Part shown: positions 2,739 to 59,689 of the stretch, one piece after another
Position numbering within the stretch: position 1 is the first letter of the stretch
How the letters are laid out: every line of letters begins with the position of its first letter
Source of the DNA: Candidatus Sulfotelmatobacter sp.
GTDB lineage: Bacteria > Patescibacteriota > Saccharimonadia > Saccharimonadales > UBA4665
Length of the DNA: 64,000 bases
Direction of reading: 5' to 3'
Assembly (NCBI GenBank): GCA_035508275.1
Contig: DATJNI010000007.1
Coordinates: forward strand, 60,324-124,323
Program-made: the position numbers and the translations under genes
Notes under the pieces: generated by a model
Told to the model about the DNA's origin: nothing
Databases searched by the model: none
What the model saw: only the letters and a program-made list of their open reading frames with translations

Positions 2739-4025
2739 TTAGCGCTTGTCCTCTAAAGCTTCTACGCCGGGTAGCTTGTGTCCACTCATTAACTCTAGAG
2801 AGGCACCACCGCCTGTCGAGACATGATCGAAGCTATCTACTAGGCCTCTGCTCTCTATGTAGCCGACGGTATCGCCGCCGCCAACTAGAGAGTAGGGTCT
2901 AGTGCCTAAGTCCCCGACTATGGCCTCAATAACTGTTTGGGTGCCATGAGTGTAGGGTCCTATTAGGCCCCTTAGCCCTTTGGTCTCGGTTACTCCCATG
3001 GTGCCATTCCAGACGACAGTACTTGAAAGTTGGATAGCCCCAGCAATAAAGGCAGCGCTAAATGGGCCAATGTCTAGGATCATCTCATGGTCAAGAATAC
3101 GCATATCTTTTTCGCTTGGTTTATGTGGGTAGGAGACAATGTCGGCATAGTTATTGGCGGAAAAGTCGACAATTCGTGTACTGTGTCTACCCTCCATGTC
3201 TTGAGAAACAACCACATCAAAGGGGATAGCGAGAGTGAACTTACGTTTTTTAGATTCGATTTCGCTTCTTGCCATAATTTCTCTGGCTAGCTTTATTTCT
3301 TTTAAGTCTATTAGGCTTCTGCCGACCGGGATGCTCTTGGCAGCTAGAAAGGTATTGGCTAGGGCACCGCCGACTGCCATGAAGTCGGAATGCCGCATAA
3401 ACGTCTCAATAAGTTCAATCTTATCTGATATCTTAGCTCCACCAATTATGGCGGCAAGGGGACGTTTGGGATCATGCATAACGCTAGTTATGTTGTCGAC
3501 TTCTTTAGCAAGCAGTAGACCGGCAACACTTGGTAGTAACTTAGTGATGGCATAAGTACTAGCATGCTTTCTATGGACAACAGCGAAGCCGTCTTCTACA
3601 AATACTTGGCAGTTTTCGCTGAGCTGCCGAGCAAAGTCTTCGTTGTCAGACTCTTCTTCCGGGTGGAAGCGAAGGTTTTCTAGTAGCAGTATTTCATGTC
3701 TTGGCAGATTGGCTTTAGCTTGAGTGGCCTTTTCGCCTATGCAATCGTCAAGGAAATGCACTCTTCTACCCGTTAGTTTCGCTAGTTTAGCGGCTATCGG
3801 TTTTAGGCTCATCTCCTTATTTACCTGGCCCTTAGGGCGGCCAAGGTGAGAGATAATGACTAAGTTCTTAGCATGGGATAGGATGTAGTCTACTGTTAAT
3901 AGGGATTGTCTTATCCGGTAGTCGTCAGTTATTTCACCGTTTTTAATTGGAACGTTATAGTCGGCTCTTAGAAGAACCGTTTTGTTTTCTAGATTAATGT
4001 CTTTAACTGTTTTTTTACTGAACAT
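2739..4025 (-). CDS. pgk: phosphoglycerate kinase
   Basis: LLRADYNVP and SHLGRPKG N-terminal motifs and GGGDT near the C-terminus; 428 aa. Confidence 0.95.
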   Translation of the reverse strand: MFSKKTVKDINLENKTVLLRADYNVPIKNGEITDDYRIRQSLLTVDYILSHAKNLVIISHLGRPKGQVNKEMSLKPIAAKLAKLTGRRVHFLDDCIGEKATQAKANLPRHEILLLENLRFHPEEESDNEDFARQLSENCQVFVEDGFAVVHRKHASTYAITKLLPSVAGLLLAKEVDNITSVMHDPKRPLAAIIGGAKISDKIELIETFMRHSDFMAVGGALANTFLAAKSIPVGRSLIDLKEIKLAREIMARSEIESKKRKFTLAIPFDVVVSQDMEGRHSTRIVDFSANNYADIVSYPHKPSEKDMRILDHEMILDIGPFSAAFIAGAIQLSSTVVWNGTMGVTETKGLRGLIGPYTHGTQTVIEAIVGDLGTRPYSLVGGGDTVGYIESRGLVDSFDHVSTGGGASLELMSGHKLPGVEALEDKR

Positions 4026-12817: not shown

Positions 12818-13774
12818 TTATCCTCTCATTCCTTTCCCTGTTGTGAACCTGCGTCTGTTGGCTAGGATCAAAGATCCTGTACCAAACAAAATGGCTGCAA
12901 GTCCTTTCATAATTAATGAAGTTTCACTTGATATACCCATCTCATCGGTGGTAGTTGGTTGGTTGACTCGCTCAGCAATTAGGTTCATGCCGCCAGTGGT
13001 ACGACTAAAGTACTGTCCACCAGTAGAGCTTGCAAGACCTTGGAAACTATCTACTAACTGTTTTGGGGTACCGCGCGGATCCAGGTTAACTACGCTGACT
13101 TTGGTTTTCTGCTGGTTGGCAGCTTGGGCCAAGCTAGCAGTATCTCCCAGGCTATCGCCATTAGTTATTACCAGTATCTCGCCCGCTGTATTTGTTGAGC
13201 TTTTGGCTTGCTTATCTAGTAAGTCTTGGGCGGTTGCGATACCACCGTTCATATCTGCAGCACCAAGCGGCTCACCGACAGCTGTATTTACAAACTTAGC
13301 AAACTCTCTTGCTGTAGTGATTTGCTGGTTGTCTGAGTGAACTCCGCTTAGGTTTTCATCTACTACGGTTGGGTTAGTCTTAGAGAAGTCGCTTATGATA
13401 GACACCTCTTGAGGTAGTACACTTTGAACATCTGCGGCACCATCAGCTACAATTTCTAGACCCTCGGGATTAGTGTGAGACGATTCTCCTGTGAATGAGT
13501 AGGCAAAGAGACTGCCGCTTACTGCGAAAGACAAGATAACGGCACCTTTAACTGAGTACCTGCCAAGGAAGGCTCTAGCCCTTTCATAAGCACTTCGCTC
13601 ATCTTGGTTTTCCTTTTCGTCTTCATTTTGTTCGTGAGACAGTGCACTAGCAAGTACTGGCAAGTGTTCTTCTTCTACCACTCTACTTTGCCTTTCAATG
13701 GCAAAACGATCAGCTACAGCGCCTACGGTGGCGCCAGCAGCAAAACCGACAGCGAGTGCAATCTCTGAATCCAT
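12818..13774 (-). CDS. membrane-anchored von Willebrand factor A (VWA)-like protein with degenerate MIDAS
   Basis: N-terminal hydrophobic helices. LEIVADGAADVQ at the DxSxS position. ILVITNGDS, VSVVNLDPRG and GGQYF blocks typical of VWA. C-terminal TM plus ANRRRF tail. Confidence 0.65.
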   Translation of the reverse strand: MDSEIALAVGFAAGATVGAVADRFAIERQSRVVEEEHLPVLASALSHEQNEDEKENQDERSAYERARAFLGRYSVKGAVILSFAVSGSLFAYSFTGESSHTNPEGLEIVADGAADVQSVLPQEVSIISDFSKTNPTVVDENLSGVHSDNQQITTAREFAKFVNTAVGEPLGAADMNGGIATAQDLLDKQAKSSTNTAGEILVITNGDSLGDTASLAQAANQQKTKVSVVNLDPRGTPKQLVDSFQGLASSTGGQYFSRTTGGMNLIAERVNQPTTTDEMGISSETSLIMKGLAAILFGTGSLILANRRRFTTGKGMRG

Positions 13775-13829
13775 ATACGATTATTTTACACTATTTTAGC
13801 TAAATAGTCAAAGGTTGTTTATAAGAAAC

Positions 13830-14786
13830 TTATTTGTCTCTTTTGGAGTTAGCTTCTATACGCTCTTTGGCGAATTTTCGTCTCAGTACCAACTGATAAA
13901 TAACTATTCCAGAGGCTGCGGCGCCAATGAAAACTAGGGCAACATCGCCTGGTCCGGTGTTAACTAGACTGGAAGTAGTTGAAGATGGGGTAACAGTTGC
14001 TTGGACAGCCGGAGTTGAGGCTGTTTGTTGGGGAGGGGCTTGGGTAGTGGTGTTCTGGACGACGGTAGTATTAGTTGAGCAATTGCCGCCGCTAGCATTA
14101 TTGGTATTGGACGAGTTGGTTGTGTTGCCGTTGCAGTTGCTTATGGTAGTGGCTGCTGGAGTGGTCGTCTTAGTTGGTACCGGTTTAGGAGGAACGGGCT
14201 TAGGTGGGACAGGTGGTGGAGAAATTGGTCTTGCAGATATTGGGTTGCCGCAGCTGGAGAGAATAGCGAAGTCAAAGCGACCGTTTATAGTTACAACGTA
14301 AGCGTAAAGAGCATTATTTAGGAAAGATATTGACGGAGGTCTAGTGTAGAAGGTGGTGCCGTCAAAGTTAACAGTGGAGCTGCCGCTTATATACTGTCTG
14401 CCGCCCGTTAAAGCACCTGTAGCTATTACTCCACCGGTCGAGTTTAGGACATCACCAGATTTAGTCACTTCGCCAGCTTGGACATGAGCCACGCTACTAT
14501 TCATAAGTTCAATATCTGAGTAATTTATACCGAAGTAGTTATATATATTATGGATACTGGCAGCCGAGTTAACTCCGTCGCCGTTATTGTACTTGCCTAT
14601 AAGGTTGTCTACGGAGCTGGCGCCACAGTAAAGGACTGCGTTAGCGTCACAGTTATATGGTCCACCTATACCAATATTTTGAGCATGTACTGAGTCCAGT
14701 TTAATTAGGAAAAGTGCCAACAGAATAGTCAGTGCTGCAGCGAACATCCAGTTGCGGTTTTTGAGGTTGTAGGTCAAACTCAACAC
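13830..14786 (-). CDS. secreted cell-surface protein with C-terminal LVNTGPGD sorting-type signal
   Basis: Signal peptide. Linker PPPVPPKPVPPKPVPTKTTTP. LVNTGPGD (coded at 13944-13967) followed by a TM helix and RRKFAKER tail. Confidence 0.8.
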   Translation of the reverse strand: MLSLTYNLKNRNWMFAAALTILLALFLIKLDSVHAQNIGIGGPYNCDANAVLYCGASSVDNLIGKYNNGDGVNSAASIHNIYNYFGINYSDIELMNSSVAHVQAGEVTKSGDVLNSTGGVIATGALTGGRQYISGSSTVNFDGTTFYTRPPSISFLNNALYAYVVTINGRFDFAILSSCGNPISARPISPPPVPPKPVPPKPVPTKTTTPAATTISNCNGNTTNSSNTNNASGGNCSTNTTVVQNTTTQAPPQQTASTPAVQATVTPSSTTSSLVNTGPGDVALVFIGAAASGIVIYQLVLRRKFAKERIEANSKRDK

Positions 14787-49545: not shown

Positions 49546-49621
49546 TGGTCGGGGTGAGAGGACTCGAACCTCCGACCTCAGCGTCCCGAACGCTGCGCGC
49601 TAGCCACTGCGCCACACCCCG
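49546..49621 (-). tRNA. tRNA-Pro (anticodon CGG)
   Basis: Reverse complement CGGGGTGTGGCGCAGTGGCTAGCGCGCAGCGTTCGGGACGCTGAGGTCGGAGGTTCGAGTCCTCTCACCCCGACCA. Anticodon loop TTCGGGA. Confidence 0.9.
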
Positions 49622-49653
49622 AAATGGGTGCTTACATTTTAACAAAATACCTT

Positions 49654-51420
49654 TTACTTGGTGCACGCTCTTGGATCCCAGGGCGACAGACCTTGTGTGG
49701 CTGAGCTAACCGTACCTATGCCGACCGTCTGTTGGCCCGAGCTAGAGGAAGATGAAGAGGATGAGGACGTGCTGGACGGCGATGTGGCAGAGCCCTGAGT
49801 AGATGAGGATGAAGGACTGGTAGGTGTATTGACGCTCATGTCCGTACCAGTCAATACCGTTATTTGAGAGCCTCGGGTGACCCGAGAAGGATCTTGAGCT
49901 AATATTACGTAACCATTTAGATCTTTGGCAACAGCTAGAGCGTCTGCTTCTGTACTCCTGCCTGAGTAATAAACAACCGTCTCCTGTGCTTCCTGACTTA
50001 CTGGAGTAGCGGTGCCAGGTGTGCCGACCATATTAAAGCCTAGCGATTGCAAGGACGACGTAGCTTGTCCAGCTTGGTCTGGTGTGCCGCTACCATTAAC
50101 TACATTGACGCTAACGCTACTAGGCTTGGGTAATGGCTTGCCTGTTAGCGTATCTATGGAACTGTTTGTGCCAAGGAACTTATCTATTATTTGTTGGTCC
50201 TCAGCCTCAATTGGAAAGACTACGTCGCCGTAAGAATTGTCTTGGTAGACATAGTTGCCAAAGTTTGTAGTTACGATAGGTAGAGTGTATTGTGGCACGC
50301 TGTTTATGCCGACAGCGTGAAATTCTTGGAGCAGTGAGATCATCTCTCCAGTAGACAAGCCAGAGTCAACCTGAACCTGGGGAGCTATAGCATCGACAAG
50401 CTTTTGGTCGGTTATAGGGTTATCTATGCCTTGAGCGGCTACGGTGCTAGCCAGCACCCTTAAAAACTCGTGAGTTCTAGCAATACGGGCAATGTCGCTC
50501 TCGTTTTCCTGTGGCCAATAGTTAGGGTCATTGGTTGTGACGCCTGGTGCCTTGTACTGCAGATGTCTAGCCCTAACGACTTGTAAGGCTTCCACGCCGT
50601 TTAGGGTTTTACAGCCTGGGGTTTGGACGTTTAGGTAAGATTCTGAATCATATACTGGCATTGGGAAATCCATTTTTATGCCGCCAATAGCGTTAACGAT
50701 GTTTACAAAACCGTCAAAGCCTACTTCTGCGTAGTGTTGGATTGGAATGCCAAAGTCTTCTTGGACAGCATTAACTAATTGATCTGGTCCCTGATAGAGG
50801 GCCGCATCAATTTTAAAGGCTTCGTCACCTGATCTGGCGTTGGGGATAAAGGTGTCTCGTGGTATGGAAAGCAGAGAGATAGTATGAGTTTTTGGAACTA
50901 AATGAACGATGAAAATAACGTCGCTGTTTACGCCAGTTACACCCTGGGAACAAAAGCCCCACTGAGCGTTTTGAACTTTCAGGTTGCAACGATTGGTTGA
51001 GCCAGCGACTAGTATGTTCTCTGCTCCACCGACTGATGCTGATAGGTTCTTAACGTCAAGATGATGAAGTTTATGGTAAAGCTGCCAACCGTCCCAAGCG
51101 CCTGCTGCAACTAAAAGAACTAATATGACTGCAAAAACCTTCAGGAATATTTTCTTTTTCGAACGCTTCTTCTTGGGTTTACTTCGGGTTGGCGGAATAC
51201 TCTTATTAAGCAGTGAGTCTGCGTCGGTGTTATTTTTAGCTAGGTGAGAGCGACGGGGCATATCGCCGTTTACTTTAGTCGGGTCTACTGAAGTTTGGCT
51301 GAGACGGTCATCTTTATATTCGACTTTGTGAGTAGGTCTACGCCTAGGCTGGGGACTCGCCCTAAAGCCATCGATACTTAGAGGCTGGTTTGGGCGTTTT
51401 GGTTGAGGGTTTTCGGGCAT
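49654..51420 (-). CDS. LytR-CpsA-Psr (LCP) family cell-wall glycopolymer transferase with LytR_C domain and poly-Ser tail
   Basis: Basic N-terminus plus a TM helix. SDVIFIVHL...LLSIPRDT LCP core. VNVVNGSGTPDQAGQATSSLQSLGF LytR_C-like block. C-terminal SSTSSSSSSSSSSG. Confidence 0.85.
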   Translation of the reverse strand: MPENPQPKRPNQPLSIDGFRASPQPRRRPTHKVEYKDDRLSQTSVDPTKVNGDMPRRSHLAKNNTDADSLLNKSIPPTRSKPKKKRSKKKIFLKVFAVILVLLVAAGAWDGWQLYHKLHHLDVKNLSASVGGAENILVAGSTNRCNLKVQNAQWGFCSQGVTGVNSDVIFIVHLVPKTHTISLLSIPRDTFIPNARSGDEAFKIDAALYQGPDQLVNAVQEDFGIPIQHYAEVGFDGFVNIVNAIGGIKMDFPMPVYDSESYLNVQTPGCKTLNGVEALQVVRARHLQYKAPGVTTNDPNYWPQENESDIARIARTHEFLRVLASTVAAQGIDNPITDQKLVDAIAPQVQVDSGLSTGEMISLLQEFHAVGINSVPQYTLPIVTTNFGNYVYQDNSYGDVVFPIEAEDQQIIDKFLGTNSSIDTLTGKPLPKPSSVSVNVVNGSGTPDQAGQATSSLQSLGFNMVGTPGTATPVSQEAQETVVYYSGRSTEADALAVAKDLNGYVILAQDPSRVTRGSQITVLTGTDMSVNTPTSPSSSSTQGSATSPSSTSSSSSSSSSSGQQTVGIGTVSSATQGLSPWDPRACTK

Positions 51421-51575
51421 AAATATTGATACATTTTATACTAATTATGTTTGAAAGCATATAAGTTTGTATCTCTGTTTTTGGAATAATTACACTGGGG
51501 TCTTGAATGACTCGTTAACACTAGCTAATTATTGTAATTTGGGTCTACAAACTGTAAGCTCAGTCTAGAGGTTTT

Positions 51576-52133
51576 ATGAAAAAACGAAATCCAATAGCAG
51601 TATTTTTCTTAAGCATAATTACACTAGGTATTTATGATATCTACTGGCTAGTGAAAACAAAGACAGTGCTCAATAAGGAAACTAAGGTGCATGTGCCGAC
51701 AATATGGCTTTTGTTTATACCTGGAATTTTACTTGGCGTTGGCTATGGACTATTGATTGGCGGGGGTGTTTCAAATCATAACACTGGCTACGGTAGCAGT
51801 ACTAGCACTATAGCTCATCCAGGTGTTTTCTTTAGTGGAGTTGGCTTAATAGTAGTTGGTTTTATTGCAGCTTTTACTATTGGGATTTATTGGCTATTTA
51901 GGTTTTCGCAGGCAGTTGATGAATATACAAATGGGAAAATGAATACTGCTGTTTCGTTTCTAATTTTGTGGTTAGTACATTTTATTGGTGTAGCACTAAT
52001 TCAAGATGCGTTTAATAACATGCCTGGAGTGCAGACCGGTCAACCAGTAGCTGCCGCGCCGCTTAATTCGACCAGCCCGCCAGCTGAGCAATATTCACCT
52101 CCCCCAAACGACAAACCCAACCAACAAGTCTAA
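51576..52133 (+). CDS. DUF4234-like membrane protein
   Basis: NPIAVFFLSIITLGIYDIYWLVKT motif. Several TM helices. Pro-rich tail. Confidence 0.6.
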   Translation: MKKRNPIAVFFLSIITLGIYDIYWLVKTKTVLNKETKVHVPTIWLLFIPGILLGVGYGLLIGGGVSNHNTGYGSSTSTIAHPGVFFSGVGLIVVGFIAAFTIGIYWLFRFSQAVDEYTNGKMNTAVSFLILWLVHFIGVALIQDAFNNMPGVQTGQPVAAAPLNSTSPPAEQYSPPPNDKPNQQV

Positions 52134-52156
52134 TCTTTAATCAGCTTCATATGAGC

Positions 52157-52717
52157 TCATTCAGGTTGGGGTATTTGAAATCTCTCTCGTAAAGAATCCA
52201 GTCTCTTGCCAAATGCATCAACCAAATCAAACTCAAAGGTTTGTGCTTGCTCCATAGCGCTTGCTACGAGTAGAACGCCACTTTCGAGCATAGCGTGAGG
52301 TAAATCGCCAGCATAACCATCCTCTTCATCTTCGTGGTCTAGTTCGTGCAGTTCCTCTGCTAGCGTTGCAGCAGCTTCAGCAAACTCGGCAAAGTATAGA
52401 GGGGTTGCCTTAAAATTTCCTCTTTCAGATAAATCAATAAAGCCTGATAAACTGCGGTCACCGGGATATACTCTATCGGAAGAATCTGAGTTCCACCTTG
52501 CAAACCTTAGTGCATACTGCAAACAATCGGGGGCTATTACGAACTCAACCGTATTCCTGTCACCAAAATCTTTGCCAACGAGATCCTTAACTAAATGAGT
52601 CATGACATGCTGAGCATTTGCCCTCAATCCCTTATCTTCTAGATCCCAGCCGCCTTGTTCTACGTCATAAGTATAAAGAGGGCCACTTAGGTCTCTGAGT
52701 TCTGCTTTAGATAACAT
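52157..52717 (-). CDS. hypothetical acidic protein (186 aa)
   Basis: Intact ORF with core-like G+C. Helical, with a weak MazG-like flavour only. Confidence 0.45.
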   Translation of the reverse strand: MLSKAELRDLSGPLYTYDVEQGGWDLEDKGLRANAQHVMTHLVKDLVGKDFGDRNTVEFVIAPDCLQYALRFARWNSDSSDRVYPGDRSLSGFIDLSERGNFKATPLYFAEFAEAAATLAEELHELDHEDEEDGYAGDLPHAMLESGVLLVASAMEQAQTFEFDLVDAFGKRLDSLRERFQIPQPE

Positions 52718-53091
52718 AATAAAAGCTTAGAATTTCTATTACATAAGTGCAAGGTTAAGCAATATGTTTGATTAATCTTACTGGTCGCGCTGTGGCGAAT
52801 AACGCCGAACCTGACTTTATAAGTTTACTACACTATCTAAAACAGAGTTGGGATGCTGATATTTTTGTAAATGAAACTGAGCCATTATTGGAAAGTATTG
52901 ATATTCAAGACGTGCAAAAGGCTGAATATACTAAAGCGTATCATTATTAGTTCTGACTCCTAAAAACTAGCTTTCACGGCGCTTAATAAGCATTGTTAGC
53001 ATATATAGCCACTATATCTTTGAACTACTAATCAAAGTCATTAGTGATAATACATGCCAGAAATTATTATAATAATAGTAGTGGAGTATGT

Positions 53092-53304
53092 ATGAATAGC
53101 GATAGTCAACAGATTGTATTAACAAAAGCACAGAGCAGTTTTGTTAAGGGTGTTATGTCAGAGTTTAGGAAAAATGGTGGTGCGGAGTTATTGGCTGAAC
53201 TTGTAGCATTGCTGCAAACAATTGATGAAAATGCACCTGATGCCGAACTTAATGAGACAACGATGTCTGATAATAATGGTGGCAGAATTGAACTTAATCA
53301 GTAG
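53092..53304 (+). CDS. hypothetical acidic protein (70 aa), island
   Basis: GGAG 5 nt upstream of ATG 53092. The track ORF starts further upstream. Confidence 0.4.
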   Translation: MNSDSQQIVLTKAQSSFVKGVMSEFRKNGGAELLAELVALLQTIDENAPDAELNETTMSDNNGGRIELNQ

Positions 53305-53318
53305 GTGGTGTTTGATTC

Positions 53319-53771
53319 ATGAATAGTGATACTGCAACGGTAGTGCAAGCTAGCTCAAAGCCTCAATTAGCCTCAAATCACCGCATAAAGTTATGGGCTT
53401 TTTTAGCTAAATATGAAGGCAATACTCACAAAGAGATCGCTCAAATGATTGGTTGCCCTGAATCTACAATAGCAACCTACTTTAGTAGGGAATGGCGGAT
53501 GGATTATCAAGACTTTGCTGATGAAGAAGATGCTATCCGACTAGAGATGGTACGCAATATCTTAAAGCACAAAATGATTAGAGCAGCCAAGGAACTGACT
53601 AATTTAGTATTAAGCCATGATCCAAGGATCAGATTAGCTGCTTGCAAGGAAGTGCTAGACAGAACAGTAGGCAAAGATTTTATAGTAAATGAACTTAATG
53701 ATTCTGAAACCTTAACTTTGGAAAGACTTAGGATAGAGAAAAAGAGAGCCTCGCACTATGAAAAAGTTTGA
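53319..53771 (+). CDS. putative HTH DNA-binding protein, island
   Basis: NTHKEIAQMIGCPESTIATYF resembles a helix-turn-helix; 150 aa. Begins MNSD like the preceding ORF. Confidence 0.45.
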   Translation: MNSDTATVVQASSKPQLASNHRIKLWAFLAKYEGNTHKEIAQMIGCPESTIATYFSREWRMDYQDFADEEDAIRLEMVRNILKHKMIRAAKELTNLVLSHDPRIRLAACKEVLDRTVGKDFIVNELNDSETLTLERLRIEKKRASHYEKV

Positions 53772-53775
53772 CATT

Positions 53776-54186
53776 TTATTTTTTCTGAATTACTAGTTCG
53801 GTAAAACCAGTATCTTTATCATGCTCTCTTTTATAGGTAACCGAATCATCCTCAGCTATTACTACCTCGGCAGTTAGATCAACTAATGAGCCATCCTTAA
53901 GGTGTCCGCCCACTACCTGACCTTCCTTGCTTGATAAAGCTATATGTAGATGGCAATCAGTACCTGTCAGAGTACCAACTAGGGACACAATCTCATGTTT
54001 ATCTTCATAAGTCCTTATGTCCTGTTTGTCTGGTGTTGCGCCAGCCATTCTTAGTACAAAAGGCTTTAATGCTCCAACACAGGTAAGTATTGAGCCAGCT
54101 TTAATATTATTGTCCTTAGCAAACTTTAATAGCTCAACTCGCAAATCTTGGTCTTGCTTTAGCCTAAGCGTGAACAGCTTCATCAT
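53776..54186 (-). CDS. PPC (DUF296) domain protein
   Basis: LRLKQDQDL..ELLKFAKDNNIKAGSILTCVGAL...EIVSLVGTL....HLHIALSSKEGQVVGGHL...TAEVVI fits the PPC/DUF296 pattern closely. Confidence 0.75.
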   Translation of the reverse strand: MMKLFTLRLKQDQDLRVELLKFAKDNNIKAGSILTCVGALKPFVLRMAGATPDKQDIRTYEDKHEIVSLVGTLTGTDCHLHIALSSKEGQVVGGHLKDGSLVDLTAEVVIAEDDSVTYKREHDKDTGFTELVIQKK

Positions 54187-54461
54187 TCATCCTCACTTAA
54201 CAATGATATTATTTGATAGCCGTATTTATCTACATCTTCCTTAGACCAAAAGTCAAGATCTTTAGTTTTACCAACGTATCCAACCTTACGGTGGATAGTG
54301 CGACCTGTAGGCTGCTTGGTCGCCGAGTTAATCTCATTTAGCACTAAAGTATCACCTGGTTGACAATCCCAGTCTGCCAGCCTTAACTCATAAGTTTTTT
54401 CACCACTGGCAAGTTTATCAAAGTATTCTGATAGTATCTTTTTCTCAATAACTTTGCTCAT
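54183..54461 (-). CDS. ASCH-fold protein, DUF3850 type
   Basis: KKILSEYFDKLASGEKTYELRLADWDCQPGDTLVLNE parallels the DUF3850 consensus (K-I-W-P-E-Y-F...G-x-K-T-F-E-L-R-x-N-D-R-x-F-x-x-G-D). Confidence 0.75.
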   Translation of the reverse strand: MSKVIEKKILSEYFDKLASGEKTYELRLADWDCQPGDTLVLNEINSATKQPTGRTIHRKVGYVGKTKDLDFWSKEDVDKYGYQIISLLSEDE

Positions 54462-54826
54462 GCTTTTGCTATCTCTATATAATTACCGCTTGGGTCACGA
54501 ACAAAAGCATAGGTCAGCAGCACACCCTTAGTAATAGGAATAACTATTACGCAACCTTGTTTTTCAAGTTCTGCTATGTCACTTTCAAGATTATTTGATG
54601 CAACCGCTATATGTTGGCGTATAAATTCTACTTGAGGATGTTTGGTGTCAATAAATTGCCATAGCTCAATACCAGCTCCGCTTTCTGACGCCATCTGTGC
54701 AGCATGAGCTTCTGGCTCAGGTTTTTCAAATCTGGTTGTTACGCTAAAACCAAGTTTTTCATATAGTTTTATGGCTTCACCTAAGTCTTTTACTTCAAAT
54801 CCGCTATGTAAGTATTTGGTTATCAT
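54458..54826 (-). CDS. VOC (glyoxalase/bleomycin-resistance/dioxygenase) family protein
   Basis: HSGFEVKDLGEAIKLYEKLGF and VRDPSGNYIEI blocks. I prefer ATG 54826, which removes the overlap with the upstream gene. Confidence 0.7.
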   Translation of the reverse strand: MITKYLHSGFEVKDLGEAIKLYEKLGFSVTTRFEKPEPEAHAAQMASESGAGIELWQFIDTKHPQVEFIRQHIAVASNNLESDIAELEKQGCVIVIPITKGVLLTYAFVRDPSGNYIEIAKA

Positions 54827-54830
54827 AATG

Positions 54831-55370
54831 TTATTTCTTGTAAAACAAGCTTTCAATTTGCTTAAGGTCATTGGTTGGTTCAATGTCGGTTAGGCTTTCC
54901 AGCGTTTCATTAGACTGAGGATCTTCAAATACTAATGTGAACCTAGGCGAGTGTTTATTAAAGCGGCAATCAGGAAACAACATATGGTGATGCCATTCAA
55001 CCCCTTGTTTATTCAAAACTTTGGCTCGGTTGATAATTTTGTTAACCGTATCGCTTGGCTGGTAGTCTGAATCGGTAGACTCTTGATTCAGCACTTTTGA
55101 CCCATGAAGTAATGGAGATAGTTCTTGACCCAGTGTTTTCTCTGCTTGTTTAGAATAGTGTACTAGCGCTATACCTTGTGTGGGACACTCAAAAACAAAT
55201 GCATACTTTTGGTTATCATTGAGACTGCAAGCTGGCGTAAGTATATGAAAATGCCACTTTACACCATTGTTATGGCACTTGAGTGCTTTATCACGGATTA
55301 CACTGATCTCAGTCTCTTGCATACACTCATTGTAAGGCTGTTCAGAGGTTTTCATCAAACACAAATGCAC
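54831..55370 (-). CDS. uncharacterised protein made of two tandem copies of a ~50-aa W-H-x-H / Cys domain
   Basis: The repeats IRDKALKCHNNGVKWHFHILTPACSLNDNQKYAFVFECP and IINRAKVLNKQGVEWHHHMLFPDCRFNKHSPRFTLVFEDP align position by position. Start codon uncertain (GTG 55370, ATG 55355 or ATG 55322). Confidence 0.6.
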   Translation of the reverse strand: MHLCLMKTSEQPYNECMQETEISVIRDKALKCHNNGVKWHFHILTPACSLNDNQKYAFVFECPTQGIALVHYSKQAEKTLGQELSPLLHGSKVLNQESTDSDYQPSDTVNKIINRAKVLNKQGVEWHHHMLFPDCRFNKHSPRFTLVFEDPQSNETLESLTDIEPTNDLKQIESLFYKK

Positions 55371-55722
55371 TTATCTGTTTAATTCCATGCTCTATAAAGC
55401 TGCAAACTCTCAGTTGACCATCCCAAACCCTATAACCATGTCGCATGTTATCTTTGACTGCTACAATCGGTGGTACTTTATCAAGGCTATCTTTGCTTAT
55501 TAGTTTATCTTGTATCACTGGTTTTATCTTTGACCAGGCGTCAACATATTGCATCTCTTTTAGGTCAGTGACATCTATCCAGCCATGTATATCTGTATGG
55601 GCTATGATCAGACTATCTATTGGCAATAAGCCTTCATGCCAATGGTCTTGATAATATTCTTTATCCTTAAAGTTTATTTCAATCAGCCTTTTGTAAAAGT
55701 AGTCCAGATCAATCTTTTTCAT
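55342..55722 (-). CDS. hypothetical protein with possible ParB/sulfiredoxin-like C-terminal domain
   Basis: VPPIVAVKDNMRHGYRVWDGQLRVCSFIEHGIKQISAFVF resembles the ParB N-terminal-domain core (PPI.V....Y.V.DG.HR). The call is weak. Confidence 0.5.
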   Translation of the reverse strand: MKKIDLDYFYKRLIEINFKDKEYYQDHWHEGLLPIDSLIIAHTDIHGWIDVTDLKEMQYVDAWSKIKPVIQDKLISKDSLDKVPPIVAVKDNMRHGYRVWDGQLRVCSFIEHGIKQISAFVFDENL

Positions 55723-55736
55723 CTAAGGCATTATAA

Positions 55737-56375
55737 TTGAGGTATATGGATAGAGCTAAACAAATAGCTAAAGACTCAGCAATGGCAGCAGCAGATTCAA
55801 TTGCCAGTAAGATACCTGGATTAGATATAGCTTGGGGCGTTTCAAAAGCTGTTTATGGCAGTGGGCTAAAACTTAGGCAGCAGAAAGCACTAGAGTGGGT
55901 GGAAATGATAAGAGATAACCCTGGTATCTTTACGGAAGGATTATTAAGCAAAGAGTCATTCCAAGATAGTTTTGTTTACGCACTTGAGAAATACATAACG
56001 GAGCGGAATGAACAAAAAAGACAATACGCCAGAAATATATTCTTGCACTTGGCTGAAGCTGAAAGCATTGAGGATTTTCCACTTGAGAGGCTTTATATAA
56101 CATTGGAACAGCTCAGCATGAATGACATTGCCGTGCTATCTGATATTGACCCTGAGCGAACAGACATTAACTATCAAATATATGGTGCTACAGATCAGAA
56201 GCTAGACAACATATACTCGCTGTTGCAGGTAGGCATAATAAGGGAAAGTCAGGGATCACATACAATAGTTGATGGTTTCCGAGCGCCATTTGTAAATATA
56301 TCTAATTTTGGCAAAGAGTTTACTAAATACATTAAGAGGGATAGTAGTGAAGATTCAAGTGAGTCTGATGAATAA
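55737..56375 (+). CDS. hypothetical protein (212 aa) with acidic Ser-rich tail, island
   Basis: Intact ORF divergent from the five-gene operon. No family recognised. Confidence 0.5.
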   Translation: MRYMDRAKQIAKDSAMAAADSIASKIPGLDIAWGVSKAVYGSGLKLRQQKALEWVEMIRDNPGIFTEGLLSKESFQDSFVYALEKYITERNEQKRQYARNIFLHLAEAESIEDFPLERLYITLEQLSMNDIAVLSDIDPERTDINYQIYGATDQKLDNIYSLLQVGIIRESQGSHTIVDGFRAPFVNISNFGKEFTKYIKRDSSEDSSESDE

Positions 56376-56402
56376 AGCCAGGCTACTTTAATTTTTATAC
56401 TA

Positions 56403-57197
56403 CTACGGATTGCCCCAAGTGCTGTTGACATAGATATGGACATACTTTGTATAAGTCCATTGCTGATATGTAACATCTATAGTAACTACGGCATCACTAG
56501 TATGGTCATTTAGGAAATACTGCGGTGCAGTACCTAAGAGTAATGTATTGTTAGCATCATCAATGTTTAGCAACATAGGTATGTCAGGGTAACTAGAACC
56601 TAATGGATTAAGTGAGGACACTGTTGCAGCCGACCAAGATAATGGACTAGTTGAGCCATCAGAATACTCAGCAACTAGATTAAATGGAATTGGCGTGTAA
56701 TCATAGCAAGTTTCCGGCGTGCCACTGATAATATCGCCAAACTCACAATACGGTATATAGATTGTCTCATTAGCACCTGGTGTTGGTGAGATAACTGCTA
56801 TGCCGGTCATGGTAGGCGCTGGCTTTTGTGGAGCAGGTTGTGTTGATGTTGAAGATGCAGTTTTGCCACTACTTGACGGTGTGCCACTAGACTGACTACT
56901 TGTTGAGGTTTTACTGCTTGGTTTGTTAGTATGACTGGTCACGCTATTGGTAGCAGGGTTATCAGACTTATTATTTGATGCTGTCTGTTTGCTAACAGTT
57001 TTATTACTAGTATTACTACTATTGATGATCATAGGAGCAGCATAAGCAGACGCAGCTACAACAATCACAATTCCAACTATGACACCTACTGGAAAGCCTC
57101 TGTATCTTTTCATAAACAGCTCAGAGACTTTTATCCACTTTGCGCTTGTTTTACTTATGGTTTTAGTTTTAATTTTATTAAAAATACTCATAATCAT
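56403..57197 (-). CDS. membrane-anchored extracellular protein with Ser/Thr-rich linker, island
   Basis: TM helix FPVGVIVGIVIVVAASAYA, a long S/T/N/K linker, and a ~130-aa C-terminal globular domain. Confidence 0.6.
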   Translation of the reverse strand: MIMSIFNKIKTKTISKTSAKWIKVSELFMKRYRGFPVGVIVGIVIVVAASAYAAPMIINSSNTSNKTVSKQTASNNKSDNPATNSVTSHTNKPSSKTSTSSQSSGTPSSSGKTASSTSTQPAPQKPAPTMTGIAVISPTPGANETIYIPYCEFGDIISGTPETCYDYTPIPFNLVAEYSDGSTSPLSWSAATVSSLNPLGSSYPDIPMLLNIDDANNTLLLGTAPQYFLNDHTSDAVVTIDVTYQQWTYTKYVHIYVNSTWGNP

Positions 57198-57201
57198 TCC
57201 T

Positions 57202-57786
57202 TTAGTAAGTTATTGATTGGTTATCACTTGGGTTATTGTCATTTGTGCCACCATAAGTAATGTTGCAGATGTTATTGTGAGTTGTGTAATTGTAGTTATA
57301 GCTAAGAATGTAATGGTTACTAAAGTCATTATTTTGAGCTGTTGTTATTGATCCAAGATTACCTAGATATTGAGGGGCGGTATTATCATCAAAGATATTA
57401 GCCTGGTACATCTCATTAGGGTTGGCTGCTGCCTGTTGACTAAAGTATTTGCATAGCTTAGGTAGGATTGTGTGGTTATCCTGGCTAGGATTTATTACCG
57501 CTGTAACTGTTATAAAAGCGCCGTCATTCTTATTGGTAACATAGTCTAAAGATACAGGTGGATTTGTAGATGTAGAGGCGGTTGAGCCTTTGCTGGCAGT
57601 GGTTTTATTGCTTGGAGCAGTTATAGCTGTGAGAATTATCAAAACAACTACGGCTGATCCAAAGTAAATAGCAATCTTACGGCGGTTATACGGTTTACCA
57701 GTCCGTTTATTTTTACCTGGTTTGGCTAGACCACCTACTAATAGAATGATGGATATTACTAATAAAAAGATCAGAAAGCCACGCAT
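57202..57786 (-). CDS. two-TM membrane protein with extracellular Asn-rich domain, island
   Basis: Helices FLIFLLVISIILLVGGLA and IAIYFGSAVVVLIILTAITA, followed by an S/T linker. Confidence 0.55.
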   Translation of the reverse strand: MRGFLIFLLVISIILLVGGLAKPGKNKRTGKPYNRRKIAIYFGSAVVVLIILTAITAPSNKTTASKGSTASTSTNPPVSLDYVTNKNDGAFITVTAVINPSQDNHTILPKLCKYFSQQAAANPNEMYQANIFDDNTAPQYLGNLGSITTAQNNDFSNHYILSYNYNYTTHNNICNITYGGTNDNNPSDNQSITY

Positions 57787-57886
57787 TTACTTCTCCTTTC
57801 AGGCTTTTTAACCTGACGACAAGCAAACACAAAGCCTACCGCCAGGCGACAACCTCTCGGCTGCCTACATGAGTTTCCCCATGCAA

Positions 57887-57930
57887 CCAATAGACAGTAC
57901 CTGAACGATAGGCTCAGTATTGTCTATTGG
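57887..57930. repeat. 10-bp perfect inverted repeat CCAATAGACA-N24-TGTCTATTGG upstream of the recombinase gene
   Basis: Read directly. Lies about 110 nt upstream of the recombinase start. Confidence 0.5.
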
Positions 57931-58041
57931 ATTTGAGTCCATGCCTGTTGCCAGGTTTAGGACTTTACTAAATTGTATTAACACTATAGAAGTGTTGACA
58001 TCATTGTACCACCATCCAATCAAGTCCATCTCTGTTAAAAT

Positions 58042-59634
58042 GTGATCATGGATCAAGGTGAAGAAGAAGTCATAGATTTTACTAAACTCAGATATGCTTT
58101 ATATTTGCGCAAAAGTACCGATGATAAAGAGCGACAACAGAGATCCATAGACGATCAACAAGCCGAGTGCGAAGAGATGGCTGCAAAGTATGGATGGCAC
58201 TTAGTAAAGCCTTATTATGAAGACCACGGCTCTGCTAAAGTACCTCGCAATCCTAAACGTGGGCGGTTTTATGACCTATTAAAAGATCTGGAAGCTGGAA
58301 AGGTGGATGGAATAATAGCTTGGCATCCAGACAGGTTGGCTAGAAATATGGAAGATGGTGGAGAAATTTTTGGTCTATTAGATCGGAAAGTGCTAAAAGA
58401 TCTAAAGTTTGTTACTCATTACTACACCAATGATGCAACAGGCAAAATGCTTCTAGGCATATCTTTCACTCTGTCAACTTACTATTCTGCTAACTTATCT
58501 CAAAATGTTAAGAGAGGTCATAGAAGAGCTTTAGGTGAAGCTAAATCATCTGGCGCTCCAAAACATGGCTATAACCGTTCTGAGCAAGGTATTTATGAGC
58601 CTAATGAAAACTATGAAATAGTAAAGGAAGCATGGCAGATGAGGCTCAGAGGTCATAGTTTGAGAGAAATATCTGACTGGATGAATGAAAATGGCTATGC
58701 AAGGGTCATTAAGGACAAGAAATCAAAGAAGTTTAACCAAATAATCAAAATGAGTTTTCAGACTGTAGGTGAAATGTTTAAAGACTCCTTTTATTGTGGT
58801 CTGATGGTGCAAACAAATAAGACTGTTGACCTTAGAGAAGCCTATAATTTTGAGCCAGTAGTTAATGAAGATGAATATGATGAGGTTCAGCGACTATCTA
58901 GGGCTACAGCTTCACCTTTGATTAAAAATAGGCGCAAAACCTTTTATCCTCTGAGAGGTATGGTGAAGTGTGCATTATGTGGTAGAAATATGTCGCCAGG
59001 TGCATCAAAAGGACAACATGGTGATCGCAAGCGTTACTTATATTACCGTTGCATAAATGCTGAGTGTACTCGCAAAAAGAAATCTATAAGGGGGAAGGTC
59101 ATATTCAATTTTATATATGACCTACTAAAAGATGGTGTCAATTTAACTGATAAGGATTACAAAGATTATTATGAACATTTGACTAATGAAGCCAACAAAG
59201 ATGCTACAACTATACAAACTGAACTTAACAGCAAAAGAGGAGCATTAAAGGCTACAAACAAAAGGATAAAAAATATTGGTCTTAAGCTTATAGATTATTC
59301 TCAAGACTCACCTGTTTGGAAGGTTAATAATGACGAACTAATAAAATTGGAAAAAGATGCAAAAGATCTCAAAAAACAGATAGTTGAGCTTAAAGAAAAC
59401 CAGACTGATCCTAAAAAAGACATACTTAGCATTGAGCAGTTTTTGAACCTAGCAAAAAAGGCTGGTTCTAAAGTGAAGGCAGCTAATGAGGTTGGGAAAG
59501 ATCATATTTGCCGAATAATCTTTTTGAACCTCATGGTTGATGAGCAAGAAGTAACTGATTATCACCTTACAAAAGCATTTTCTAAGCTAGAAAAGATGCA
59601 AAATGTCGGTGATGGTCGGGGTGAGAGGACTTGA
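58042..59634 (+). CDS. large serine recombinase (integrase)
   Basis: The N-terminal resolvase motif ALYLRKSTDDKERQQRSIDDQ carries the catalytic Ser. DGIIAWHPDRLARN. Recombinase domain. Zinc ribbon CALCGRNM...YYRCINAECTRK. C-terminal coiled coil. 530 aa. Confidence 0.9.
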   Translation: MIMDQGEEEVIDFTKLRYALYLRKSTDDKERQQRSIDDQQAECEEMAAKYGWHLVKPYYEDHGSAKVPRNPKRGRFYDLLKDLEAGKVDGIIAWHPDRLARNMEDGGEIFGLLDRKVLKDLKFVTHYYTNDATGKMLLGISFTLSTYYSANLSQNVKRGHRRALGEAKSSGAPKHGYNRSEQGIYEPNENYEIVKEAWQMRLRGHSLREISDWMNENGYARVIKDKKSKKFNQIIKMSFQTVGEMFKDSFYCGLMVQTNKTVDLREAYNFEPVVNEDEYDEVQRLSRATASPLIKNRRKTFYPLRGMVKCALCGRNMSPGASKGQHGDRKRYLYYRCINAECTRKKKSIRGKVIFNFIYDLLKDGVNLTDKDYKDYYEHLTNEANKDATTIQTELNSKRGALKATNKRIKNIGLKLIDYSQDSPVWKVNNDELIKLEKDAKDLKKQIVELKENQTDPKKDILSIEQFLNLAKKAGSKVKAANEVGKDHICRIIFLNLMVDEQEVTDYHLTKAFSKLEKMQNVGDGRGERT

Positions 59635-59689
59635 ACCTCCGACCTCCGCGTCCCAAACGCGGCGCGCTAGCCAACTGCGCCACACCCCG
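59613..59689 (-). tRNA. tRNA-Pro (anticodon UGG)
   Basis: Reverse complement CGGGGTGTGGCGCAGTTGGCTAGCGCGCCGCGTTTGGGACGCGGAGGTCGGAGGTTCAAGTCCTCTCACCCCGACCA. Anticodon loop TTTGGGA. The first 22 nt (59613-59634) overlap the recombinase ORF on the other strand. Confidence 0.9.

Follow-up and report, generated by a model that had tools for sequence, protein, structure and literature searches.

A small integrative island at tRNA-Pro in Saccharibacteria with a predicted attachment site inside its own serine recombinase gene

To our knowledge, serine integrases are regarded as avoiding tRNA targets, and their directionality as being set only by a separate recombination directionality factor (RDF) protein. 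In mycobacteriophage BPs and its relatives the phage attachment site, attP, is located in the 3' part of the repressor gene, and integration changes the C-terminus and the properties of the repressor. The Ccr genes of SCCmec lie within the cassette and stay whole upon integration. In surveys of mycobacterial prophages the tRNA sites were used by tyrosine integrases, not by serine integrases (PMC10654092), and according to a review recombinases that have the site inside the gene encoding them occur exclusively in archaea (PMC8371274). The 'suicidal' integrases of SSV1/2, pTN3 and pT26-2 have attP in the integrase gene and a tRNA as target, and integration separates the gene (PMC8371274). Here we describe a locus in a 64,000-nucleotide stretch of contig DATJNI010000007.1 from a Saccharimonadales assembly (the window), where a small cargo-only integrative island is driven by a large serine recombinase (LSR) and targeted to tRNA-Pro. 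Our reading, to which we give a probability of roughly 80%, is that the element was inserted by its own LSR at the 3' tip of tRNA-Pro(UGG), with attP inside the LSR gene, and that the integration detached the tail of the enzyme.

The element extends from 52782 to 59612, plus a 6-bp core, TGGTCG, and 6,831 bp separate the two copies of this core (Table 1). For comparison we used the contexts of five close LSR homologs with 65-72% identity (L057, L059, L060, L061 and L063), which together with the window make six loci. When the DNA of the six loci was aligned, conservation started exactly at the TGGTCG in window position 52782 and persisted for about 170 nt, and the sequence to the left was unconserved; the left edge proposed in an earlier note on this DNA was exactly right. 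TGGTCG is the sole block that is identical between both junctions, in 6/6 loci, and no longer repeat was found. Since nothing else is common to the two junctions in the six loci, the crossover dinucleotide must lie inside this core. The distal junction (attL) reads host flank, TGGTCG and a P' arm coding for the tail, and the proximal one (attR) a P arm coding for the LSR, TGGTCG and the tRNA. The short common core in place of long direct repeats, and the position of the integrase gene at the end of the element, are as in the phage serine integrases. Unlike these, the LSR targets the 3' tip of a tRNA and not a protein-coding gene or an intergenic site.

The open reading frame (ORF) adjoining the tRNA encodes an LSR, because it has the Resolvase (PF00239, E=2e-24), Recombinase (PF07508, E=2e-10) and Zn_ribbon_recom (PF13408, E=5e-9) domains of Pfam. 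Furthermore, the catalytic motif Y..R.S..D...Q.R is invariant across an alignment of 56 sequences. ARAGORN and the Pfam domains agree with the earlier note on a 530-aa LSR next to tRNA-Pro(UGG), and also its view that the end of the gene is encoded opposite the tRNA was borne out. The last 22 nt of the LSR are the reverse complement of the acceptor/T-arm of the tRNA, with the TGA stop inside the T-loop. The final 7 codons come from host tRNA DNA, and the integrated form terminates after GRGERT.

The T of TGGTCG is a third codon position at the distal end, likewise at the LSR/tRNA junction. When the LSR up to 59612 was joined with the sequence from 52782 onward, an open reading frame of 579 aa was obtained in the window, and the joining adds exactly 49 aa in 6/6 close loci, with products of 572-579 aa. 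An all-against-all ORF comparison showed that each related LSR has a counterpart of the tail block at 1.9-5.3 kb on its upstream side, and such a block is present in the six loci and in a metagenome locus, L067. The conserved consensus of the tail in the six loci is GRA.AN..EPDF.SLLH.LKQ.WD...E.ET.P....ID......G..Y.Y, followed by the stop, and the segment has no conserved start codon of its own. Among seven copies, including that of L067, the pairwise differences of the tail were 0.26, 0.285 and 0.45 by codon position, as compared to 0.76 in the adjacent host flank. Because the differences are biased to the third position and lie below those of the host flank, the tail is under selection at the protein level, in the frame of the LSR. 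The divergent loci L011 (~29-31% identity) and L036 (41%) have the same split, with other tail types, and could also be rejoined in frame, so the reconstruction holds in eight loci, six close and two divergent. As read from these frames, attP lies within the LSR gene, 49 codons ahead of the natural stop. A position inside the coding sequence would imply that integration necessarily remodels the C-terminus of the enzyme.

Tails that are still joined to an LSR could also be found. A profile of 91 aa across the junction retrieved ORFs that run from the LSR C-terminus directly into the tail. One of these is P0121 (...KAFSKLEKAQSVLNGRPKANIFEPYF...), on the phage-like contig L068 with portal-like and CHAP-domain genes, and P0122 and P0123 are further contiguous LSR-tail ORFs; in P0127 and P0139 the LSR C-termini are fused to tails that elsewhere are found split. 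The junction DNA was AAT GGT CGC, in the same phase, in both contigs checked (L068 and L073). More distant LSRs of 564-571 aa, with 45-48% identity, bear a homologous tail, ...LE.F..L.DAI..HWD...Y.YEY, directly before the stop. The latter (P0046 etc.) were considered as free forms and rejected, since the fetched loci, L065 and L066, have no tRNA and a context unlike that of the candidate phyla radiation (CPR). They therefore support the homology of the tail only, and not the attP state.

Some other contigs contain parts of this system in other arrangements. The Logan contigs with P0121 (L068-L072) are phage-like and about 20 kb, with a portal-like 733-aa gene, a CHAP-domain protein, DUF1064 and an IS1595 transposase, and they carry merely the last ~65 aa of the LSR fused to the tail, which links the LSR family to phages. 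In L064 a 67%-identical LSR (P0016, 565 aa) continues across TGGTCG (nt 3606) and ends in another type of tail, and a second tail-like ORF with TGGTCG (nt 25) is found at the start of the contig; these could be tandem elements or a tail exchange between elements. In L056 a fragment of an LSR is followed directly by its tail (13341-14143). Tail-like remnants were also seen ~0.6-1.4 kb from tRNA-Pro genes without a complete LSR in L056, L022, L024 and L048, and have the appearance of copies of this type of element that decayed or were rearranged.

In the mechanism that we propose, the free element would express the full-length enzyme and integrate at tRNA-Pro, with the strand exchange taking place within TGGTCG and the tRNA gene kept intact. 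Integration would put the LSR body against the tRNA and leave the last 49 codons 6.8 kb away, at the far end of the element, so that the tail would be swapped for GRGERT and a stop, an antisense read of host tRNA DNA. The last residues of the integrated enzyme would be incidental, a stretch of 3 to ~30 aa that depends on the sequence of the T-loop. Excision would restore the full-length enzyme of 579 aa. The predicted junction of the circle is ...GCAAAATGTCGGTGA-TGGTCG-CGCTGTGGCGAATAACGCC..., and the predicted empty site is ...GTTTGATTAATCTTAC-TGGTCG-GGGTGAGAGGACTTGAACC....

This arrangement is similar to that of the SSV1-type integrases in that attP is within the integrase ORF, the target is a tRNA, and the parts of the gene end up at opposite ends of the element. 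Unlike them, it concerns a serine recombinase in Saccharibacteria, while theirs are tyrosine recombinases of archaea. Furthermore, the partition of the SSV1-type gene is thought to inactivate the integrated form, but here only a 49-aa tail is lost and all known functional domains are kept. With the integration-dependent immunity of BPs it shares a C-terminus that is edited through integration, but the split gene is the LSR and not a repressor, and the BPs integrase is of the tyrosine type. Unlike in the phage serine integrases, attP lies inside the integrase ORF here, and the C-terminus would differ between the free and the integrated form. The LSR can also be compared with Ccr of SCCmec, which is of the LSR family and inserts at the extreme 3' end of a housekeeping gene (rlmH/orfX) without inactivating it, but the target here is an RNA gene. 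Literature searches gave no description of such an arrangement, which does not prove that none exists.

Several observations weigh against a mobile element with a split recombinase gene. A degenerate pattern for attL, attR, attB and attP recovered both junctions in the window but had zero matches in JGI metagenome contigs, where the predicted attB (the empty bacterial site) and attP junctions were absent. Most related genomes lack an insertion at the ymdB-proximal tRNA-Pro(UGG), which speaks in favour, but no close relative with an empty site is available, the nearest ymdB being 68-69% identical. Most of the contiguous forms are either remnants of an LSR (P0121, P0139) or short ORFs (P0122, P0123), with no complete free element of the close family among them, and the full-length tailed homologs (L065, L066) are 45-48% identical and not located beside tRNAs. 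The structure prediction of the tail has low confidence (see below), and dyad scans of the reconstructed attP and attB revealed no dyad symmetry or matching left-arm motifs. Furthermore, a family-level P' pattern found one more integrated copy, L067, no free form in metagenomes and nothing in IMG/VR, and the exact YmdB protein of the window, looked up as a lead to strains in which the site is empty, is not on record.

Alternatively, the element could be a fossil, once mobile by the same mechanism but now fixed, with a truncated LSR that is inactive or domesticated after a 'suicidal' integration. The missing attB and attP and the absence of replication and transfer genes fit this explanation, and the tailed LSR remnants in other chromosomes (L056, P0139) show that decay does occur. 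We nevertheless find it unlikely. In this and every related locus the ORFs of both the LSR and the tail are intact, the tail is under purifying selection, the catalytic motif is conserved, and the truncation falls past the last folded element of the protein. Intact and selected parts are hard to keep if they are never rejoined, and from the persistence of such tails at the far end we infer that the elements are regularly rejoined, i.e. that they excise. A side observation concerns L062, a contig of 3,391 nt with the same element as L061, which starts ~6 nt past the distal core and whose other end is inside the tRNA, after 35 nt of it. Assembly breaks at both attachment sites fit a coexistence of integrated and non-integrated forms in that sample, but this is suggestive only.

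The flanking genes and 56 related loci place the organism of the window in the Saccharibacteria (CPR). The tRNA gene keeps its position beside ymdB-rny in most of these 56 Saccharibacteria loci, which usually have the gene order rny, ymdB, tRNA-Pro(UGG), 0-6 kb of other sequence, tRNA-Pro(CGG), further genes and tRNA-His, and in most of these syntenic loci no recombinase adjoins tRNA-Pro(UGG). The LSRs of L057, L060 and L061 abut tRNA-Pro(GGG), that of L059 tRNA-Pro(CGG) and that of L063 tRNA-Pro(UGG). The tRNA-Pro targeting of the earlier note's small island is thus not peculiar to this genome, as it recurs at UGG, CGG and GGG in other Saccharibacteria. In all six loci LSR and tRNA overlap by the same 22 nt, with an unchanged reading phase (...nnT GGT CGG GGT GAn nGG AnT TGA), and the divergent LSRs of L011, L021 and L036 (~24-41% identity), in ymdB loci, likewise end within tRNA-Pro.

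The LSR homologs number in hundreds, and the best 120 of them were sorted by their ends. About 75 end in xGRGxRT-like or xSRGxxN-like peptides, ~30 continue through the tRNA antisense (RTRTFDLxVPNRAR...) and ~13 have long tails, where the tRNA overlap was seen in the DNA of the fetched loci and for the other homologs was read from the end peptide. About 100 of the 120 have a GRGxRT- or RTRTFDL-type end, which resembles a translation of tRNA antisense. Many of the LSRs in P0055-P0119, which are 45-49% identical and in some cases source-named Woesebacteria, end in xSRGAGN- or xSRGERT-type peptides and not in xGRG. Going by these peptides, the xSRG endings suggest that the targets are other tRNA species, or tRNAs whose genes do not encode the CCA.

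TGGTCG is complementary to positions 71-76 of the tRNA (CGACCA), and the tRNA therefore stays intact with at most 6 identical nt derived from the element. The 22 nt beneath the stop of the LSR are host tRNA sequence. This is contrary to the earlier note, which suggested that the element supplies the 3' end of the tRNA; reconstitution does not go beyond the 6-bp core, and no 3' segment of the tRNA is carried. In L060 the 3' side of the acceptor stem has a variant, GGGATG, that pairs with CATCCC on the host 5' side, in agreement with a host origin of the 3' strand. The likeness to Islander-type tyrosine-integrase islands consists of the abutment on the tRNA 3' end, the integrase beside the tRNA, the accessory cargo and the higher AT content. 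The island differs from them in its serine recombinase and in having a 6-bp core only, without a restored and a displaced tRNA segment.

An insertion in the manner of a tyrosine integrase, where the element carries a 3' segment of the tRNA (~22-30 nt) and the original end was displaced to 52782-52811 and has since decayed, is very improbable. It was the earlier note that took this 30-nt patch for a displaced tRNA end, attL. The TGGTCG that it shares with the tRNA is real and is present at both ends, and the composition drop begins at the patch, but the remainder of the patch is the 3' coding end of the LSR, conserved over seven loci in the LSR frame and not tRNA-like, and it has no acceptor/T-arm features. 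Without TGGTCG the patch aligned with the tRNA end marginally better than shuffled sequences (global alignment, p ~0.02), a similarity that we attribute to shared recombinase-recognition motifs and not to tRNA ancestry. In local alignments of the tRNA against 9-10 kb upstream of the LSR in the six loci, only the neighbouring complete tRNA-Pro(CGG) was found and the other matches were no better than shuffles; the patch is absent from the best matches in the upstream 10 kb of the window, and none of the six loci has a tRNA-derived repeat. The pairing in L060 is also what would be expected for a 3' strand of the host. It is scarcely credible that the block at 52782-52950 matches the LSR frame by accident and is a small gene of its own or a terminal sequence acting in cis. 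A mechanical 60-aa ORF (TTG 52768; 52768-52950) covers it, and many 'hypothetical proteins' of this kind, with 57-70 aa, are annotated by gene callers, but conservation starts exactly at the core, the upstream starts are not conserved, the phase is identical in 8 loci, two of them with unrelated tails, and there are natural contiguous LSR-tail ORFs and homologous tails at the end of full-length LSRs.

The specificity of the LSR probably lies mainly in the acceptor/T-arm half-site, since three isoacceptors are used and the downstream flanks are unrelated. In the right arms, P' and B' (the tRNA half-site) share xGAxT at +15-19, and GAACC is found at +26-30 in P' and at +21-25 in B', that is, with an outward shift of 5 bp in P'. 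For the LI integrase the zinc-ribbon motif is offset by 5 bp between attP and attB (PMC3783163). The shift of GAACC matches this LI-type rule and the 5-bp offset of the phage serine integrases, on one arm only here, and on motif positions like these the match is suggestive only. As left/right dyad symmetry could not be detected, the assignment of the half-sites rests on that arm. Between L060 and L057 on the one hand and L061 on the other, the block of element and tRNA-Pro(GGG) has opposite orientations with respect to its neighbours, the genes of RNase H and peptidase M50, and the flipped orientation of tRNA-Pro(GGG) between these relatives may be an inversion associated with the recombinase.

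The rejoined 577-aa protein was modelled with AlphaFold2 (AF2) from an alignment of 56 sequences. The model is confident to about residue 512 (predicted local distance difference test score, pLDDT, mostly 70-95) and low over 515-577 (pLDDT 27-46), where the tail region contains a single short helix at 534-543. Long helices at 368-451 lie inside the zinc-ribbon region as an embedded coiled coil, and the protein thus has the resolvase catalytic domain, the recombinase domain and the zinc ribbon with coiled-coil insert of phiC31, Bxb1, A118/LI, TP901-1 and SPbeta SprA. In the model the junction sits in a flexible region beyond the last folded element, and the catalytic, recombinase and zinc-ribbon/coiled-coil domains should therefore stay in the integrated form, which would probably remain a competent recombinase. 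The modelled tail, with its helix and aromatic C-terminus, looks like an appended linear motif. The identity of the LSR to deposited phage LSRs is at most ~26%. Its nearest solved relatives are SPbeta integrase, TnpX and TP901-1, with a weak match to SPbeta (E ~1e-6), and the best NCBIfam match is CcrB, with 94 bits, far under the family cut-off of 900. No relatives of the LSR were found in IMG/VR by single-protein or alignment search.

It is conceivable, and we propose it tentatively, that the tail is a built-in state sensor or regulatory switch, where the two isoforms differ in directionality, stability or partner binding. Such a switch would be integration-dependent and encoded by the position of attP within the serine integrase's own gene. 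It would be a bacterial serine-recombinase counterpart to the archaeal SSV-type integrases and to the integration-dependent immunity of mycobacteriophages, and the strategy appears to be widespread in CPR/Patescibacteria. Independently of the switch, our reading would mean that a large CPR clade of serine integrases targets the CCA end of tRNA-Pro with attP inside their own gene, and that the archaeal tyrosine recombinases with the site in their own gene have a parallel that is bacterial and of the serine type. The short attB/attP pairs of this new, compact integrase family may serve as tools, including in the genetically intractable Saccharibacteria. It would also give a simple rule to delimit mobile islands in CPR, an LSR ORF that ends antisense in a tRNA together with a tail ORF initiated by TGGTCG, and account for many orphan 57-70-aa 'hypothetical proteins' in CPR metagenomes.

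The island has a G+C content of 38.1%, as compared to 42.6% in the remaining window, and has the lowest G+C of all 6.8-kb windows, the minimum elsewhere being 40.3%. The AT-richness in the earlier note is thus real and the profile is not flat, but the drop is smaller than its hand counts had indicated. Pfam, PHROGs, NCBIfam and PADLOC assigned no capsid, terminase, replication, transfer or defence genes in the island, which for the first three had been noted before, and a phage_integrase domain was found in none of the island ORFs, the sole recombinase being of the serine type.

Beyond the tail stop all seven distal ends (window, L057, L059, L060, L061, L063 and L067) have the motif RCCA-N7/8-TTTGAACy, at a distance of 21-71 nt, which may serve the neighbouring genes of a small ORF and a helix-turn-helix (HTH) protein as the -35 region of a promoter or as an operator. 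The C-terminus of the small ORF is strongly conserved (...LNETSISDNNGGRI.L), and the ORF has no Pfam or PHROG family match. It is located directly upstream of the LSR in L036, L057, L059, L061, L062 and L063; the window and L060 have it at the distal end, which corresponds to a position just downstream of the full-length LSR in the circular form. HTH proteins of ~140 aa are found at the equivalent position in L059, L060 and L061; an identity as terS was rejected, the similarity being that of a non-specific HTH. The small ORF, the HTH protein, or both, are candidate directionality factors, the small ORF alternatively a candidate regulatory factor, and these are candidates only, which sets the element apart from the phage serine integrases. 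For the cargo genes (53776..57786), neither the related LSR elements nor the 56 syntenic loci contain any homolog.

Table 1. Features of the island and its tRNA target, in window coordinates.
Feature	Position	Strand	Basis
Distal junction (attL), common core TGGTCG, left element end	52782..52787	+	six-locus alignment
3' end of the LSR gene, detached: P' arm, 49 codons specific to the tail, and stop; encodes GRAVANNAEPDFISLLHYLKQSWDADIFVNETEPLLESIDIQDVQKAEYTKAYHY (stop)	52783..52950	+	phase, selection, contiguous homologs
Conserved non-coding motif AGCCA-N7-TTTGAAC, downstream of tail stop	53007..53025	+	seven distal ends
Small companion ORF (~70 aa), ending ...LNETTMSDNNGGRIELNQ	53092..53304	+	homologs in 8/8 LSR loci
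HTH DNA-binding protein, 150 aa	53319..53771	+	weak Pfam Sigma70_r4_2 / HTH_23, PHROG terS-like and CII-like matches
PCC/DUF296 cargo	53776-54186	-	Pfam, NCBIfam, PADLOC, PHROGs
ASCH/DUF3850 cargo	54183-54461	-	Pfam, NCBIfam, PADLOC, PHROGs
Glyoxalase/VOC-fold cargo	54458-54883	-	Pfam, NCBIfam, PADLOC, PHROGs
Orphan cargo gene	54831-55370	-	library scans
Orphan cargo gene	55342-55722	-	library scans
Orphan cargo gene	55737-56375	+	library scans
Ser/Thr-rich protein, N-terminal hydrophobic segment	56403-57197	-	library scans
Ser/Thr-rich protein, N-terminal hydrophobic segment	57202-57786	-	library scans
LSR, integrated form without the tail, 530 aa (528 aa if started at ATG 58048)	58042..59634	+	Pfam
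Proximal junction (attR), common core TGGTCG = tRNA positions 71-76 (CGACCA-3')	59613..59618	+	junction comparison
tRNA-Pro(UGG), intact, host target (B' half-site = acceptor/T-arm)	59613..59689	-	ARAGORN

The interval between tRNA-Pro(CGG) and the island (49546-52781) contains genes for a LytR_cpsA_psr protein (49654-51420), for a membrane protein with DUF4234 (51576-52133) and for an orphan of 186 aa (52157-52717), and only DUF4234 has counterparts there in a relative (L008). Across genomes this interval spans from 10 nt to 6 kb, which makes it a separate variable hotspot.

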